Shown here one piece after another: positions 698 through 9,929 of a DNA stretch of 10,009 nt. The DNA is from a virus (Duplodnaviria; Heunggongvirae; Uroviricota; Caudoviricetes). A program made the position numbers and the translations under genes. Where the stretch lies: IMG/VR virus record IMGVR_UViG_2734482786_000008. One strand, given 5' to 3'. The notes under the pieces were generated by a model. It searched no databases and was not told the DNA's origin. It saw only the letters and a list, made by a program, of their open reading frames with translations. Numbering within the stretch: the stretch's first letter is position 1; every line of letters starts with the position of its first letter.

Positions 698-1060
698 GGG
701 GCTGATTCTGGATTCGACGGGATTTGCGAAACCCAAGGTGCATGCCGAGGGGCGGTTGGCCTCGTAAAAAGCCGCAAAAAATAGTCGCAAACGACGAAAA
801 CTACGCTTTAGCAGCTTAATAACCTGCTTAGAGCCCTCTCTCCCTAGCCTCCGCTCTTAGGACGGGGATCAAGAGAGGTCAAACCCAAAAGAGATCGCGT
901 GGAAGCCCTGCCTGGGGTTGAAGCGTTAAAACTTAATCAGGCTAGTTTGTTAGTGGCGTGTCCGTCCGCAGCTGGCAAGCGAATGTAAAGACTGACTAAG
1001 CATGTAGTACCGAGGATGTAGGAATTTCGGACGCGGGTTCAACTCCCGCCAGCTCCACCA
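698..1060 (+). ncRNA. ssrA: tmRNA (SsrA, transfer-messenger RNA)
   Basis: 363-nt sequence beginning GGGGCTGATTCTGGATTCGACGGG and ending GGTTCAACTCCCGCCAGCTCCACCA with an encoded CCA. The tag reading frame GCA AAC GAC GAA AAC TAC GCT TTA GCA GCT TAA is present at 787-819 (ANDENYALAA-stop). Recognised as the Escherichia-type tmRNA. Confidence 0.97.
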
Positions 1061-1070
1061 AATAAAACAA

Positions 1071-1103
1071 GGGGTTACGTGAAGGCGTAGCCCCTTTTTC
1101 TTT
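1071..1103 (+). terminator. Rho-independent terminator downstream of ssrA
   Basis: GGGGTTACG (1071-1079) pairs with CGTAGCCCC (1086-1094) as a 9-bp stem including one G-U pair, with loop TGAAGG, followed by TTTTTCTTT (1095-1103). Confidence 0.65.
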
Positions 1104-1242
1104 GGTAGTGGCGGCAAAATGGCGGCAGCCAATTTAATAGCATTGAGAGGACTTACGATGCTGCTGTACAGTTGTATCATATGGTGACTTACCAAATGCG
1201 CTACCGATCAGAAATCAGACCATTTGCCATTACGAGACTACT

Positions 1243-1959
1243 ATGAACATGGACTTAAAAAAAACACGCTTAGTTAATAGATTAGTTATAGTAATTGTTT
1301 TTTTGCTTTTAACATTCGCTACAATGGAGTTTATTTATCTCTACCTACGCTCTTTGAAGACTGCGCCAAACTATACAGGCACAGTTAGTGATATTTTGAT
1401 AGCAACAACCAATATTATTTTATCCTTATGCGCAGTTTTTGCGTTCAAAAACATATCAAGTCTATTCAAGGATAAAATATCTGATAGAGCTATAAACAAA
1501 ATAGATACTGCCTTGATGTTTCTTGATGAAAGCATTGAAAAAATTTCAAGTTTATACTTTAACTTGATGATTGCTAAAATTTATAAAAATGGCAGCAATC
1601 CTAAGGATCCTCAGTTAGACAAACAACTTAATGATGCATCAGATAACCTCAGTGGTGCTTTAGATGCAGCATACAAAGCAAAATCCGCTTTCGGATCATT
1701 AAGTCGTTGGAATATAAGTCTAGAGACAGAGCAAGGAAAGCGGAAAGTTAAGCTTGTCAATGATGTTTTTGAATTATGCATGAAATCAACTACTATGTAT
1801 TCTACCTTAATAAAGGAAATAAACCCCAATTCGACATTTATTAGCGATAAAACTTTTGAAACGCTATTTAATGAATTTGATGTAGAAAGGCAAAGACTTG
1901 AAGAAGAGAGTAAAGCTTTAAAGAACGTATCTATTCATCAAATCTTCACAATTAAATAA
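1243..1959 (+). CDS. Hypothetical membrane-anchored protein (238 aa) in an AT-rich cargo block; function unknown
   Basis: A 238-codon uninterrupted ORF in DNA of roughly 25-30% GC, where stop codons are frequent, so a chance ORF is very unlikely. Two hydrophobic helices are predicted by eye (about residues 10-36 and 49-68), followed by a roughly 170-aa hydrophilic K/D/E/N/S-rich domain. No recognisable catalytic or nucleotide-binding motif. The RBS is weak and the start could be M1 (1243) or M3 (1249). Confidence 0.75.
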   Translation: MNMDLKKTRLVNRLVIVIVFLLLTFATMEFIYLYLRSLKTAPNYTGTVSDILIATTNIILSLCAVFAFKNISSLFKDKISDRAINKIDTALMFLDESIEKISSLYFNLMIAKIYKNGSNPKDPQLDKQLNDASDNLSGALDAAYKAKSAFGSLSRWNISLETEQGKRKVKLVNDVFELCMKSTTMYSTLIKEINPNSTFISDKTFETLFNEFDVERQRLEEESKALKNVSIHQIFTIK

Positions 1960-2070
1960 ATCCTCAGTAATATTGTTATTTATGATGAGATTTATTTGAT
2001 AGCCTTCACTTTGATTTAAAAGTAGGCTTTATCACCAATGACTTACAACAATTAATTAGCAGAAGCGATA

Positions 2071-2099
2071 TTCAACAATAAAACCCGCCAGTGGCGGGT
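2071..2099 (-). terminator. Rho-independent terminator of ogr (minus strand only)
   Basis: Perfect 7-bp stem ACCCGCC / GGCGGGT (2083-2089 and 2093-2099) with a 3-nt loop. On the minus-strand transcript it is followed by UUUAUUGUUGAA (2082-2071). The stem starts at the ogr stop codon. On the plus strand the hairpin is followed by CAGUAUGC, not a U tract. Confidence 0.65.
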
Positions 2100-2314
2100 C
2101 AGTATGCAAACTGTTCCTGCATCCCTTTAGGATGCGGCGGAGCGTCACTAATTTTCTCGGGACGGCAAACAGAACGAACAAAGGTTTCATGCGTTACAAA
2201 CGTATGCCCGCACTCGATATTAGTGCACTGATTGTAACGCTCTTTGGTTTGAGAGGAGACTTGAAAACTACTGCGAGTATGTGCGGCCTGACCACACAAC
2301 GGACAATTCATCAT
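2099..2314 (-). CDS. ogr: Ogr/Delta-family zinc-finger late transcription activator
   Basis: 71-aa product MMNCPLCGQAAHTRSS...YNQCTNIECGHTFVTHE with the C-x2-C ... C-x4-C pattern and overall similarity to phage P2 Ogr (72 aa). SD GAGGAG (complement of 2324-2329) lies 9 nt upstream of the ATG. Position just downstream of gene D matches P2. Confidence 0.9.
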   Translation of the reverse strand: MMNCPLCGQAAHTRSSFQVSSQTKERYNQCTNIECGHTFVTHETFVRSVCRPEKISDAPPHPKGMQEQFAY

Positions 2315-2382
2315 TTATCAACTCTCCTCATCTTTGCTGCATCTACAATAATGATACACAATTATTCAATATTGAGAACCAT

Positions 2383-3483
2383 TTATTCCATTTCAAGATC
2401 ATCAATCTTCACTTCAAGTTCGATACTGGTCGTAAAACCGTTATCCGGGCTGACAGTATGTGTCAGAGTCGTAATGGTCCATTCCGCATCATCTATCGGC
2501 TGTTTAAAGCCACTGACTTTCACAGGCATTTCCGTGTAGAGATCTGCCCGCCCTTCCGCCAGTTGTAGCGAGAATGACGCAACGCCGCGTTGCAGGCGTT
2601 CCCACTGCATTTTCGCCGCTCGTTCGGCGTTGCTCCGGTTGGCATAAGTGCGATTAAGTACCAGCACGTTTTCATCCGTACCCACCAGGTAATCGCCCTG
2701 CTTCGCTTCCGGCTCTTTCTTCTGCTTCTTAGTCCTGCGCTTACGCTTCACCGTGGTGCTTTCTTTCTTCGCGGGTTCGCGGGTATGCAACCAGCTGGCA
2801 ATTACGCCCGTGTAGGCTCCGCGATCTGCCAGGGTAAAGCGGTGACTGTCGCCGTCCTTACGTGTGATAGTGATAACCGGTAGTGGTTTACCGCTGGCGC
2901 TTTTACCCTGTCCCTGCCGGATGAATAACAGATTGCCATTTTTAACCGACGCAATAGCACCGTACTGGCGCGCCAGCCGCATCAGAAAACTGCCGTCACT
3001 CTCATTAGTCTGGTCTATATGTTCCACGGGCTTATCCGACAGGTCTTTACCCAGTGCCATCTTCAGCTTGTGACGCGCGGCTATTTCCTTCACCACTTCC
3101 CCAACAGTGGTGTTATGCCACGATTTTTCACGGCGGGTATTCAGCGTTTCACGAAAATCAGCACTTCGCGCCCGAATAGTCAGGCGGTCCGGTGCGCCAG
3201 TGTGTTCAATCTCGTCCACCGTGAATGCTCCTTTCGGGAAAAGCGGCTGCCCCTTCCAGCCCAGCGCCAGCGTAATGACCGCACCACGGCGCGGCAGAAC
3301 GATTTTTCCGTCGGCGTCGTCCAGCTCCAGATCAAGCTGGTCCGCTTCAAAGCCCCGATTGTCCGTCAGCGTCAGACTCATCAGACGGTTATCCAGCACA
3401 GTAGTGATATCCCTGCCCTCAATACTGATGCTGAATGCGGGAGTTTTGTTGCCTTTGTTAAGCAGTTCAGAGCTGAAATTCAC
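2383..3483 (-). CDS. D: P2 gpD-like tail protein (late gene D)
   Basis: 366-aa ORF directly downstream of the U homolog and upstream of ogr, as in the P2 FETUD operon. The start as called is GTG (complement of 3481-3483), overlapping the U stop as GTGA, consistent with translational coupling; the exact start is uncertain. Confidence 0.88.
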   Translation of the reverse strand: MNFSSELLNKGNKTPAFSISIEGRDITTVLDNRLMSLTLTDNRGFEADQLDLELDDADGKIVLPRRGAVITLALGWKGQPLFPKGAFTVDEIEHTGAPDRLTIRARSADFRETLNTRREKSWHNTTVGEVVKEIAARHKLKMALGKDLSDKPVEHIDQTNESDGSFLMRLARQYGAIASVKNGNLLFIRQGQGKSASGKPLPVITITRKDGDSHRFTLADRGAYTGVIASWLHTREPAKKESTTVKRKRRTKKQKKEPEAKQGDYLVGTDENVLVLNRTYANRSNAERAAKMQWERLQRGVASFSLQLAEGRADLYTEMPVKVSGFKQPIDDAEWTITTLTHTVSPDNGFTTSIELEVKIDDLEME

Positions 3484-3965
3484 GACAGCAGCCCTCCCAC
3501 CGTTTTACTGATATCACTTAAGGCAGATGTTGCCGTGTCCTGCAGATTATTCAGCTGCGTACTGAGATCACCGAACATATCGGACAGGGATTCATCCACC
3601 CGTTTGAGCGACAGGGTGAACTCAATCCGGCGCGGCATACCGTCGCGGAAAAACTCCGTTTTAGTCTGATTCAGTCCCTCAATCACATACATGCCGTAAA
3701 TCGTGCCGCTGCCTTCAATCAGAGGCCATGCTTTCCCCTGTTCTGCCATCTGCTCCAGTGCCAGCAACGACAGCCTGCCGCCTGTTATCTCCGGCATAAG
3801 AACACCAGAAAGCGTCAGCATGTCGTTGTCCGGTCCCAGAAACTGCGTGGACGGACGACGATTTACCCGGCTGTTAGCCGCATGTCGCCAGCTGCGCTGA
3901 TACTGCAGTTCCTGATACGGCACGGTGCGCAGCATAAACACGTACAATCCAAGCACCATCATCAT
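3480..3965 (-). CDS. U: P2 gpU-like tail protein
   Basis: 161-aa ORF (P2 gpU is about 159 aa) between T and D. Its start overlaps the T stop as ATGA (3962-3965). Size and order match P2. Confidence 0.9.
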   Translation of the reverse strand: MMMVLGLYVFMLRTVPYQELQYQRSWRHAANSRVNRRPSTQFLGPDNDMLTLSGVLMPEITGGRLSLLALEQMAEQGKAWPLIEGSGTIYGMYVIEGLNQTKTEFFRDGMPRRIEFTLSLKRVDESLSDMFGDLSTQLNNLQDTATSALSDISKTVGGLLS

Positions 3966-6900
3966 GCGTCGTATCCCCCTTGATCGCTGTAGTTACTCCT
4001 GGCTTTTGCCTTCAGCCTGCGTTCACGTTCATCAAGCTGGCGTGCCACCTCCCGCGCAATATCCTGCGCACTTTGTCCTGGCTGCGTCTGAATGATGATC
4101 TGCGTCGGTGCCTCAATCCGTTGAGCGGGCGGCACAGTGGCTGCACGACTCACCATCGCTTCGCCGCCTTTCGCGGGAAGTGCCAAAGGATGTAACGGCG
4201 GAAGCTCTGCAGGCGCGGCAGCAACGCCCATCATTCCGGCAACAACGGCAGCCAGTGCAGCTGTATTTCTCCGACTGGTCACGTTTGCCGGACCGTTGAC
4301 AATTTCAGGCCCGTTTTCACCGACAATGCCGAACTGCCCGCGCGGGATATAGCCGCCGCTGTCATACATCCCCGCAAAGCCATATCCCCATGACGGAAAA
4401 CCACCCGATGGCATCATCACTTTACCGTCTGCATTCACCGTCGCAGGTTGCTGACGCGTCACGCTTTCCGGCAGTTTCGCCTTTGCAGCCTCTTTACTGA
4501 CAATACCGAGTTTCTCCAGCAACCAGGAAACGCCGGATTTCAGGGAGTCCAACGGATGCATGACCATATTCAGCCCTTCCGCCAGTGCCTCCCCGAATCG
4601 TCGCCCCATTGCCGCTGCGCTCTGCAGTTCGGCAGAGGTCGACTTAACAGGCGTCAGCAGATCAGTAAACCAGCCCCACAACGCCTGTACTTTGTCGCCA
4701 ATCCACTGGAACACGGGCTTAAGCGGTTCGAATGCAGCACTGATGGGACCTGCCGCCGCTTTGAATCCTTCCACCACGCCACCGAGAAATGCGGTGATGG
4801 GTTGCCAGTATTTCCAGACAACCAGCGCCACGCCCGCCAGTGCAGTAACCACAAGACCTATCGGACTGAGCAGAGCACCTAACAGACCAGATACGGCATA
4901 CAGGGCAACGCGCAGCATCGCCAGCGGACCGGATGCCAGCACTCGCAACACAGCACCTGCGGCAATCAGTCCACCACGTAGTGCTGCCAGTGGATTCATA
5001 AACATCACAGCAACTGCACGTAAACCGGATAATCCAGACCGCAACAGTGCAACCGGCGCACCTGCTACAGTTTTCAGAACATGTCCCGTCAGTGATGCCG
5101 TGCGGCGCAAAGACGACAACGGCGCAGTAAGTAAACCCGCAGCGTTGCCCGATGAAGCAAGCCCGCGTCGCAGCAGTGCCAGTGGTGCGCCAGCCAGCCA
5201 GGACAACGCGCTGCTGGTTCGAGTTACTGCTGCCGTAACGGAAGGTAACGTTTTGATACCCAGCACAGAGAATCCCAGACGGATGACTGCCAGCGGCCCC
5301 AGCACTGCAGCCAACATCACCGCCAGGGTGCCGAGGCCCACGGTAACCGCAGCCACCACAGCCGCTACTTTCATCAGTGTGCCCGTCAGTTCCGGGTTAG
5401 CTTCCACCCAACGACGCGACGCTCCCGTGACGCTTTTCACCATGTACAGAATATCCATCAGCGGCTGGCGCAGCGTTTCGCCCAGGCTGCTGAAGGTGTT
5501 CTGCGTTCCGGTTTTGACCAGCAACCACTGCGCAGAAAGTGAGTCCTTGTTAATGTCGGATTCTTTCTGCATGGAGCCGAGCGCATCATTGCCCGCAGTC
5601 AGTTTTAGCTGGCGCTGCAGTTCCGGCAGGTTGTTTGCCAGTTTCGCCGCGTCATCGCCAAACTCTTTACCAAACAACATGGTCATGGCAGACAGACGCT
5701 TGTCCTGCGGCAGTGCGTTCACCTTCTCCAGCACACGCTGGATAGTTCCCATCGCATCCTTCGTCATCTGCTTTTCAATCACTTCAGGATTGAGTTTCAG
5801 CAGATTCATCCCTTCAAAGAAACTCTTACTTTGCATGGTGGCAATGGACAATTCACGCACCATCGCGTTTGCTGCACTGGCAGCAACCTCCGGCGCAGCG
5901 CCCAGTGTCAGGAAGGTGGAACCCAGCGCCGCCGCTTTACGATAATCCAGACGATCTGCCACACCGCCCAGGCGTTGCATGACATCAATGATGTCTGACC
6001 CTTTCGACATGGCGTTATCATCCAGATAGTTCAGCGCATCACCGAGCTGTTCAATATTGCGGGTAGGGATTTTGTAGAGCTGGGCGATTTTCCCCAGACT
6101 TTCTGACAGTTCATCCGCTGGCAGCTCAAAGGCTGTTGCCGCCTTTGCTGCCGTGCTGGCGAAGGCCAGCAGGTCACGTTTCTGGTCTTCCCAGCTGTCG
6201 TCAGGATTTGCGACGTTCATGCGCGCACCACCTTCAACCAGTGCGGCAAAGTCCACAGCACCGTTTTCCATCGGCAACTGTTCGCTGGCAGCCTTGATGG
6301 CATCCTGCATTTCGTAAAAACGCGCAGTGCGGTTGCCATTATCATCACGCAGACCATTGACCTGCTTTGCCACACCTTTCATGGCATCTTCCATGCTGGT
6401 ATAGCTTTTTACTGCTGCCATCACTGGCGCACCCATTGCCAGCCCTGCAGCCGTGGTAGTGGCTCCGGCTCCTGCGATGCGATCGCGCACTTCAAGCCGT
6501 CTTGAGTATTGTTCTCTGGCAGCGTTCATCCGTGCCTGTTGTTCACCCAGACGTTTAAGTGCTTTTTGCTGGCCCTCCAGTGCCTGCCTTGTTTCTTCAG
6601 CATTTTTCTTAAGTTCTCGCTGGGCACTACTGAGTTGTCTGGTATCAATCCCTGATTCTTTAAGTGCCTGACGTTGTCTCTGGACCGCCCCCAACAAGCC
6701 GTTATAGGTCTGCTGAAGTTCCTGTACTCGTGTTTTGGCCTGACTGAATAACTTTGCCTGCGCGGCGGTTGGCCTGTTAGTGGCAGCAAATTGTGTGGCG
6801 AGTTTTGCCGCCTCTTCGCGGGCTGCGTTCAGGTTGTTGGCTGTTATGGCTAGTTGCGAGCGCGTCTTGCGAAATTCATCAATTCTGCCAGCCTGCTTAT

Positions 6901-9296: not shown

Positions 9297-9314
9297 TGTA
9301 CCGTTATTCACACA
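9297..9314 (-). promoter_or_regulatory. Candidate Ogr-dependent late promoter element (TGT-N12-ACA) upstream of FI
   Basis: TGT (9297-9299), exactly 12 nt, then ACA (9312-9314), matching the dyad described for P2/P4 late promoters centred near -55. The centre (about 9305) predicts a start near 9250, about 30 nt upstream of the FI ATG. -10/-35 elements were not confidently identified. Confidence 0.45.
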
Positions 9315-9361: not shown

Positions 9362-9928
9362 TCAGGGAGATTCATTGCTCTTATTTGCCGGAAATTTTCT
9401 ATAAATGGTAGAAACGCCTACATCAAAAATCAGTGCAATACGCTGTCTTGATTCTCCGGCCTCGAGTAAACGCCCAATCTGTGCCCACTGTTCGGTGGTC
9501 AACTTAGGACGGCGTCCACCTACTCTGCCTTTGGCACGAGCTGCAGCCAGCCCTGCCCTGGTACGTTCAACTATCAGTTCGCGTTCCATTTCAGCCAGGG
9601 CACCCATGACATGAAAAAAGAAACGGCCCATTGGGGTGCTGGTATCAATACTGTCAGTCAGGCTTCGGAAATTCACGCCTCGCTGACGCAACTCTTCTAT
9701 CAGCGTAACAAGATGCCGCATACTGCGCCCCAACCTGTCCAGCTTCCAGACAACCAGCGTGTCTCCTGCCGATAGTGTCCTGAGCAGTTTTTTCAACCCT
9801 GGTCTGTCGGACTTAGTGCCACTGATTTTATCCTCAAAAATCCGCTCACATCCCGCGCAGTTCAGTGCATTACGTTGCAAATCGGTGTTCTGGTCATTTG
9901 TTGACACGCGTACATAGCCAATAAGCAT
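9362..9928 (-). CDS. Serine-recombinase DNA invertase (Hin/Gin/Cin/Pin family)
   Basis: Translation from the ATG at 9926-9928 begins MLIGYVRVSTNDQ with the catalytic-serine motif and is similar along its length to Hin/Gin-type invertases (VVWKLDRLGRS, MGRFFFHVMGALAEMERELI, GGRRPKL, C-terminal HTH GVSTIYRKF). The track ORF extends to 9973 (203 aa), but AGGGGG (complement of 9935-9940) is placed correctly for the 9928 start, giving 188 aa. Confidence 0.92.
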   Translation of the reverse strand: MLIGYVRVSTNDQNTDLQRNALNCAGCERIFEDKISGTKSDRPGLKKLLRTLSAGDTLVVWKLDRLGRSMRHLVTLIEELRQRGVNFRSLTDSIDTSTPMGRFFFHVMGALAEMERELIVERTRAGLAAARAKGRVGGRRPKLTTEQWAQIGRLLEAGESRQRIALIFDVGVSTIYRKFPANKSNESP

Positions 9929-9929
9929 G

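Follow-up and report, generated by a model that had tools for sequence, protein, structure and literature searches.

The exclusion genes of phage P2 (old, tin, Z/fun and orf30) are non-core, foreign cargo carried at fixed positions that have many alternative occupants, defence-type genes among them. Genes gained by horizontal transfer are known to settle in the orf30 slot, between gpV and gpS (PMC3091744), and defence systems can be recognised in about half of P2-like prophages (10.64898/2026.02.27.708500). A hotspot of P2-like prophages also lies between gpA and gpQ, and the experimental hotspot tests of Rousset et al. covered this interval only and not the one between ogr and the attachment site, att (PMC9122126). 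The ogr-att interval is only loosely covered in the literature, under 'tail protein to CI regulator', and minor hotspots close to att and downstream of GpL are listed in a preprint from 2026 (10.64898/2026.02.27.708500). Here we describe a gene that occupies the ogr-att interval in a 10,009-nucleotide stretch of Caudoviricetes DNA (IMG/VR record IMGVR_UViG_2734482786_000008), the whole of which is referred to below as the window. The gene (1243-1959, plus strand) encodes a protein of 238 amino acids (aa) and lies in a P2-like prophage between ssrA, the gene for transfer-messenger RNA, and ogr, the gene for the late-gene activator. It resembles the P2 exclusion genes in the nature of its cargo position, and the orf30 slot is itself used by other members of its family. 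It differs in that the protein has no sequence similarity to Old, Tin or Fun or to any PADLOC model, and its slot lies at a different position from the gpA-gpQ hotspot. On the grounds of location and architecture we favour, tentatively, the reading that the product may be a prophage-encoded anti-phage membrane protein acting by abortive infection or by blocking injection.

Transmembrane proteins found in such hotspots are usually read as suicide effectors (PMC9122126). The membrane effectors of abortive infection, such as lambda RexB and the two-transmembrane-helix (2TM) effectors of CBASS, Pycsar and retron systems, resemble the 238-aa protein in their few transmembrane helices, polar intramembrane residues and carriage on mobile elements and, plausibly, in oligomerisation; they differ in that the ogr-att alleles consist of one gene only and lack a partner sensor or nucleotide cyclase. 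T4 Imm and P22 SieA are small prophage membrane proteins which act by blocking injection. The 238-aa protein is like these superinfection exclusion (Sie) proteins, and like lactococcal Sie2009, in being a small prophage inner-membrane protein that would be encoded near the immunity/integration end, but it has no sequence similarity to them (Pfam, PHROGs) and carries a large extra bundle domain. From holins (about 70-150 aa) and type I toxins (<60 aa) it differs in its length, in lying outside the lysis cassette and in the lack of an Rfam RNA in the module.

The ogr-att interval of P2-like prophages integrated at ssrA is a variable cargo slot. It was surveyed in 5,426 complete E. coli genomes using two slot anchors joined by random padding, and the spans given here include the anchors. 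The empty slot spans about 420 nt, a span of 937 nt holds a 160-aa BRCT-like protein, 1714 nt corresponds to the 937-nt state plus IS1, and 1917 nt to a ParA/AAA_31 ATPase, while the family of the 238-aa protein gives spans of 1291-1340 nt (13 genomes). At least 13 of the 5,426 genomes therefore carry a family member in the slot, and since the interval is empty or differently occupied in prophages at the same site the 238-aa gene is not a core gene. The first-pass annotation had described a single-gene moron at the ogr-att end and had proposed that the interval be compared across related prophages; that comparison bore the description out, the interval being polymorphic and either empty or filled by this family, a retron-type reverse transcriptase, the BRCT-like gene, the ParA-like gene or IS1. 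A recognised defence-type gene, the reverse transcriptase, is thus present among the alternative occupants.

Some details of these other cargoes were recorded. In E. coli SCU-115 a 257-aa reverse transcriptase and an overlapping 57-aa ORF (open reading frame) occupy the ssrA-ogr interval (locus L004, 4109-5024, minus strand); the former matches the PADLOC retron model RT_VI (6.6e-18) and Pfam RVT_1, and both ORFs are on the ogr strand, unlike the other slot cargoes. The common 160-aa cargo is annotated as BRCT (L011, 424-906, plus strand) and gave a weak PADLOC match to PDC-S48 (1.8e-7) and no Pfam match. The ParA/AAA_31 ATPase cargo encodes 358 aa (L010, 596-1672, plus strand) and gave no PADLOC match. 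These last two cargoes are both co-oriented with ssrA.

The limits of the cargo were set by comparison with the empty site of EC96 (L003), in which window 1000-1129 corresponds to 3940-4069 at 97.7% identity and window 2080-2400 to 4100-4419 at 90%. The AT-rich module on the plus strand is thus 950 bp long (1130-2079) and stands in for 30 nt of the empty site, so that a module does exist where the first-pass annotation had placed one, with edges slightly different from the 1100-2080 given there. The GC content was 0.329 for 1100-2080 against 0.539 for the remaining window, with minima of 0.27-0.28 in 200-nt windows; the compositional island reported earlier is therefore real, and the hand counts of 23-27% GC hold as local extremes and not as an average. 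Every allele of the module has a GC content of 0.31-0.33, foreign to the phage backbone at 0.54. Its sole long ORF is 1243-1959, the flanks vary between alleles, and there is no other plus-strand ORF of more than 24 aa in 1130-2079, nor any second ORF or conserved flank that would indicate a partner gene or antitoxin. An Rfam scan found no RNA in the module; a weak isrK-like match (E 0.18) was the ogr terminator. The module is enclosed by two hairpins, the ssrA terminator (1069-1096) on the left and the ogr terminator (2082-2100) on the right. It is accessory DNA with a single gene, obtained by horizontal transfer, and occupies the stretch of a P2-like prophage from ogr to the att on the ssrA side.

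The coding sequence is present in the ORF list as the 238-codon plus-strand frame first described, convergent with ogr and with gpD and gpU, and is annotated in RefSeq as 'hypothetical protein' (WP_047662324.1 in E. coli ET665). Full-length homologues were found at 53-84% identity and more distant ones at 29-38%, in four genera. Over seven alleles the median dN/dS was 0.18 with saturated dS (>1), which shows that 1243-1959 is not a chance ORF; judged by these substitution rates the gene is under purifying selection. Constraint was strongest for residues 40-70, which form a loop and the second helix (dN/dS 0.07), compared with 0.19 for the C-terminal bundle. The adjacent ogr is about 90% identical while the alleles of the 238-aa gene have dS >1. 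A Shine-Dalgarno-like GAGA (1234-1237, plus strand) lies 5 nt before the ATG, and the arrangement GAG[A/G]-N5-ATG is unchanged in six diverged alleles while the remaining leader is variable.

The gene is also intact in three independently degraded prophages, namely a P2 remnant adjoining a CbtA/CbeA island, a remnant of about 6 kb with a D-T fusion, and an Enterobacter locus where the gene (L012, 6001-6717; L013, 213-929) lies beside ssrA without ogr or other P2 genes. At the Enterobacter loci a remnant of the ogr terminator hairpin is left, followed by unannotated ORFs of 203 aa and 372 aa, and these copies fall in a 72%-identity cluster which also includes named Enterobacter proteins.

AlphaFold2 (AF2) was run on the family alignment (pLDDT 80) and on a member with 29% identity (pLDDT 84.6). 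The model has two N-terminal helices (residues 5-40 and 48-76, pLDDT about 60) followed by an antiparallel four-helix bundle (residues 81-238, pLDDT about 90) and a small beta-bridge between residues 157-158 and the C-terminus. The 29%-identity member gave the same architecture, with helix 2 and the first bundle helix forming one continuous helix of 73 residues. Transmembrane helix 1 (codons 14-36, window 1282-1350, plus strand) reached a Kyte-Doolittle value of 2.48, was helical in both models and gave Hessa-scale sums of -1.3 to -6 across the family. The most conserved segment (codons 41-70, window 1363-1452, plus strand) comprises the loop APNYTGT and helix 2, SDILIATTNIILSLCAVFAF; the loop residues P42, T45 and T47 and the helix 2 residues S49, D50 and N57 are invariant in alignments A2 and A4. 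An invariant Asn in the middle of the membrane is a classic driver of helix association. The bundle (codons 81-238, window 1483-1956, plus strand) has conserved membrane-proximal residues K86-I87-D88, R155-W156 and F235; the last of these does not vary in A2 and hardly varies in A4. The N-terminus has 0-4 Lys and Arg residues in total (3-4 in 13 of the 15 members), the loop has 0-2, and there are 2-5 immediately after helix 2, a distribution that favours an N-in/C-in topology with the bundle probably in the cytoplasm. The earlier description of two N-terminal hydrophobic helices and a helical C-terminal domain agrees with these results, helix 1 being strong, helix 2 marginal and about 160 aa helical in the models. 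We conclude that the gene encodes an accessory inner-membrane protein without an enzymatic domain, in which the membrane part is the most constrained and is rigidly joined to the helical bundle.

Searches with the 238-aa protein against Pfam, NCBIfam, PADLOC and PHROGs gave no significant match, in keeping with the absence of a recognisable motif reported by the first-pass annotation, and no match to housekeeping or structural proteins was obtained. In Pfam no SLATT, DUF4231 or other 2TM effector family was seen at E up to 10 for 13 family members. A profile search of Protein Data Bank (PDB) sequences returned only a designed helical bundle (E 3.7), Foldseek against the PDB gave nothing at E <= 1e-3, and a fold search of BFVD returned two uncharacterised Myoviridae proteins. 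A structure prediction with fold search had been suggested at the outset; it delivered a confident bundle and only generic fold hits. A literature search by protein accession found nothing.

Two candidate identities were rejected. Five members matched Pfam TssR_C (best E 0.0017; 18 bits against a cut-off of 25.7), which was judged to be noise from helical composition. Sensor domains of chemoreceptors and kinases were among the fold hits, and de novo designed bundles scored equally. The 4HB_MCP sensor domains of Tar, Tsr, PcaY and TorS have only 7-12% identity to the protein, which gave no hit to Pfam 4HB_MCP (PF12729). In chemoreceptors the bundle is periplasmic, lies between two transmembrane helices and is followed by HAMP and signalling domains, whereas here it comes after helix 2, is predicted to be cytoplasmic and has nothing after it.

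The family is small. An exhaustive HMMER profile search of 1.84 billion sequences found four representatives at 50% identity, all from Enterobacteriaceae, and a database of 5.8 billion clusters yielded 15 family clusters. The hosts are E. coli, Enterobacter, Salmonella and Citrobacter, and every member is named 'hypothetical protein'. IMG/VR held five family loci only, and no member was found by tblastn among 72,556 plasmids. The gene always adjoins ogr in close relatives. Three distant members (29-35% identity) lie instead between gpV and gpS of P2-like phages, that is in the orf30 slot, on the strand opposite to the late genes, and one distant member, with an EcoRII restriction-modification system nearby, follows the tail-fibre genes in a lambdoid prophage. 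The family thus moves between cargo slots of different phages, a pattern typical of conflict-related cargo.

Two further observations concern the orf30 slot. In the ET665 prophage this slot (L001, 34021-35817, plus strand, about 13 kb past the end of the window) holds a 598-aa AAA_15/AAA_21 ATPase, which matches PADLOC AriAB (1.1e-25), AriA and GajA and is, going by these matches, probably a defence gene of known type. In one distant branch of the family in the gpV-gpS slot a soluble 246-aa ORF (L022, 1247-1987; L023, 1215-1955; both plus strand) lies 34 nt upstream of the family member on the same strand; it gave no Pfam or PADLOC match, was ruled out as a relative of the family (hhalign probability 0.3%) and may be the partner in a two-gene variant.

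The 238-aa gene is not a late gene, since it is on the strand opposite to the late genes and the dyad of Ogr-type late promoters is not present upstream of it. The only promoter-like match upstream of the gene was a weak sigma-70-like candidate, TTGAGA-18-TACAGT (1143-1172, plus strand, 9 of 12 matches in a promoter scan). This site is not conserved between alleles, and the region as a whole contained six promoter-like sites compared with 4.6 +/- 2.3 in shuffled sequence, that is no excess. The ogr terminator hairpin (2082-2100, minus strand) is GC-rich with an 8-bp stem including 6 GC pairs (terminator scan) and probably also ends the cargo transcript; it is kept in both empty and filled sites. 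The C repressor and int genes of one relative are oriented in the direction of the far att; once the phage is circular, the cargo would therefore follow directly on the immunity/int region and share its orientation. In the lysogen the cargo gene would lie downstream of ssrA.

The variable slot, the movement between cargo slots, selection on the gene, its persistence in decayed prophages, its not being a late gene, and its architecture and topology were the arguments for a defence role. The exclusion or defence function put forward in the first-pass annotation is plausible from location and architecture. We prefer a sensor-coupled membrane effector, acting by abortive infection, over injection blocking, which is a close second; the large conserved and probably cytoplasmic bundle, the continuous helix and the conserved interface suggest that a signal is transmitted to the membrane. 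In such a mechanism the protein would oligomerise through the polar face of helix 2 (invariant Asn57 and Ser49-Asp50), the cytoplasmic bundle would sense an infection cue, the signal would travel along the continuous helix, and the hairpin would then open or perturb the membrane so that infection is aborted. A more specific proposal is rather doubtful, though worth stating: that the protein is the first of a new anti-phage family in which one gene suffices, its transmembrane hairpin being fixed rigidly to a four-helix-bundle sensor in the cytoplasm and infection being aborted or blocked at the inner membrane, and that ogr-att would be a further defence hotspot of P2-like prophages which exchanges cargo with the orf30 slot and with the ends of lambdoid prophages.

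Several results weigh against a defence role. When 13 family members were run against Pfam, PADLOC (DB v2.0.0), NCBIfam and PHROGs none gave a significant match, the best PADLOC hit being E 0.0013 for one member only, and the fold hits are generic four-helix bundles which carry no functional information. Helix 2 is only marginally hydrophobic and the topology is uncertain for that reason. No family member was found by tblastn in 50,697 sequenced phage records, and of the four alternative slot occupants only one is recognised as a defence-type gene. Neither the promoter scan nor the comparison of alleles gave a convincing promoter upstream of the gene, so that its expression in the lysogen is putative. 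Finally, a truncated 127-aa copy (P0035) is present in E. coli TUM1887 (NZ_CP128963.1, hit H91), and the gene is therefore not always maintained. In that genome a prophage deletion fuses ogr to the baseplate gene V.

The alternative which survives best, although we regard it as unlikely, is a lysogenic-conversion or host-fitness factor outside defence, for instance a moron concerned with membrane stress, colonisation or modification of the envelope. Such a role would be consistent with a gene that may form its own transcription unit, has an AT-rich foreign composition and stays intact after prophage decay, including at the Enterobacter locus lacking ogr, and most alternative occupants of the slot are likewise not recognised as defence genes. 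It fits less well with a family that is so rare and so unevenly distributed (present in the slot in at least 13 of 5,426 E. coli genomes), with alleles so strongly diverged (dS >1) next to an ogr about 90% identical, and with movement among phage cargo slots that also hold defence genes, which is more typical of conflict genes.

Superinfection exclusion without killing of the cell, in which the inner-membrane protein would stop phage DNA or the tape-measure/ejection complex from crossing, appears improbable to us. Conservation in the protein is highest in the short loop facing the periplasm and in the outer half of helix 2, the position inferred for the gene on the circular phage, just downstream of the immunity/int region and in the same orientation, would suit it, and the injection block exerted by T4 Imm and P22 SieA is a precedent. 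Only about 7-11 residues would face the periplasm, however, a simple injection block has no obvious need for a conserved and probably cytoplasmic bundle making up two thirds of the protein, and no similarity to a known Sie or Imm family was found in Pfam.

An accessory role in the phage's own lifestyle, as a lysis-timing or membrane regulator, an anti-satellite (anti-P4) or counter-defence factor or an addiction membrane toxin, is in our view quite improbable. The hairpin with its polar residues is holin- or toxin-like, one family member weakly matches a holin family (E 0.11), and the gene is always beside ogr in close relatives. Yet the late-promoter dyad is missing upstream, the strand is opposite to that of the late genes, a holin/lysis cassette is already present at another place in the prophage, and the gene outlasts phage function; as for a toxin, there is no antitoxin ORF or conserved flanking RNA, and at 238 aa the protein is far larger than type I toxins. 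That the frame arose by chance or is what is left of a decaying gene in AT-rich junk DNA, as the bare 'hypothetical protein' annotation and the want of known domains and of a clear promoter might suggest, is effectively excluded by full-length conservation at 29-84% identity in four genera, the dN/dS of 0.18 with saturated dS, a confident AF2 fold that was reproduced, the conserved Shine-Dalgarno-ATG arrangement and the chance of a 238-codon open frame at 31% GC, which we calculate as about 5e-9 (stop frequency about 0.077 per codon).

The local context of the gene is as follows. The window starts with smpB (1-483), followed by ssrA (698-1060, plus strand; ARAGORN; Rfam RF00023, 295.8 bits), the chromosomal integration target of the prophage. 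Beyond the module lie ogr (2099-2314), gpD (2383-3483) and gpU (3480-3965), all on the minus strand and convergent with the cargo gene; ogr is in the ORF list, its RefSeq name is 'ogr/Delta-like zinc finger family protein', and PF04606 is recorded beside homologues of the 238-aa protein as its ogr neighbour. E. coli ET665 has an identical locus with the RefSeq order ssrA, hypothetical protein, ogr/Delta-like protein, late control D and tail genes. The probable att core (1016-1061, plus strand) is formed by the last 46 nt or so of ssrA and is found again in relatives at the opposite end of the element: copies at 100% identity (L014, 12076-12121) and 86% identity (L005, 16540-16581) both lie beyond prophage remnants, and it is this recurrence that marks the core. 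The ssrA terminator hairpin and T-run (1069-1096, plus strand; 12-bp stem with 6 GC pairs, tail TTTCTTTGGT, terminator scan) has a sequence common to all related prophage ends and probably came with the prophage, since the att core lies upstream of it. The prophage-end sequence TTTGGTAGTGGCGGCAAAATGGCGGCAGC (1097-1129, no strand assigned) forms the left edge of the cargo slot and is kept with or without cargo, these columns showing no variation in alignment A3.

Within this conserved att-proximal sequence (1101-1127) there is a motif, GTGGCGGCAAAA, of which two copies are present in the EC96 empty site (L003, 4041-4095), and a 13-nt near-repeat, TTTGTTAGTGGCG / TTTGGTAGTGGCG, connects ssrA 946-958 with 1101-1113. 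These may be binding sites for the recombinase or an accessory factor, or may have arisen by chance. In related prophage remnants the stretch from int to the far att encodes a protein of about 580 aa that has a dCMP/cytidine deaminase domain (L005, 14592-16334; L006, 14672-16426; L014, 10147-11880; all minus strand), and this site is an additional att-proximal cargo position.

At the other end of the window, TGTACCGTTATTCACACA at 9297-9314, just upstream of the sheath gene (minus strand), matches the TGT-N12-ACA dyad of Ogr-dependent late promoters and, as read from the motif and its position, is probably a P_F-type late promoter; the total of matches to this dyad across the window was not above chance expectation. 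The place of the P2 Z/fun slot, just past the tail sheath gene, is taken by a gene whose RefSeq name is 'recombinase family protein' (9363-9929, minus strand; coordinates carried over from L001 28303-28869) and whose product is probably a DNA invertase.

To a specialist the 238-aa gene, as an uncharacterised piece of prophage-hotspot cargo, is not surprising. Prophage cargo slots are a productive source of new anti-phage genes, and this one offers a minimal test case of 950 bp with natural empty-site controls, diverged alleles, a confident fold and conserved residues suited to point mutants (N57, D50 and R155/W156). Should it prove inactive, it would be another uncharacterised moron. If active, it would add a membrane protein combining sensor and effector in one chain to the defence catalogue, and would draw attention to the ogr-att interval, which has so far been outside experimental hotspot screens.

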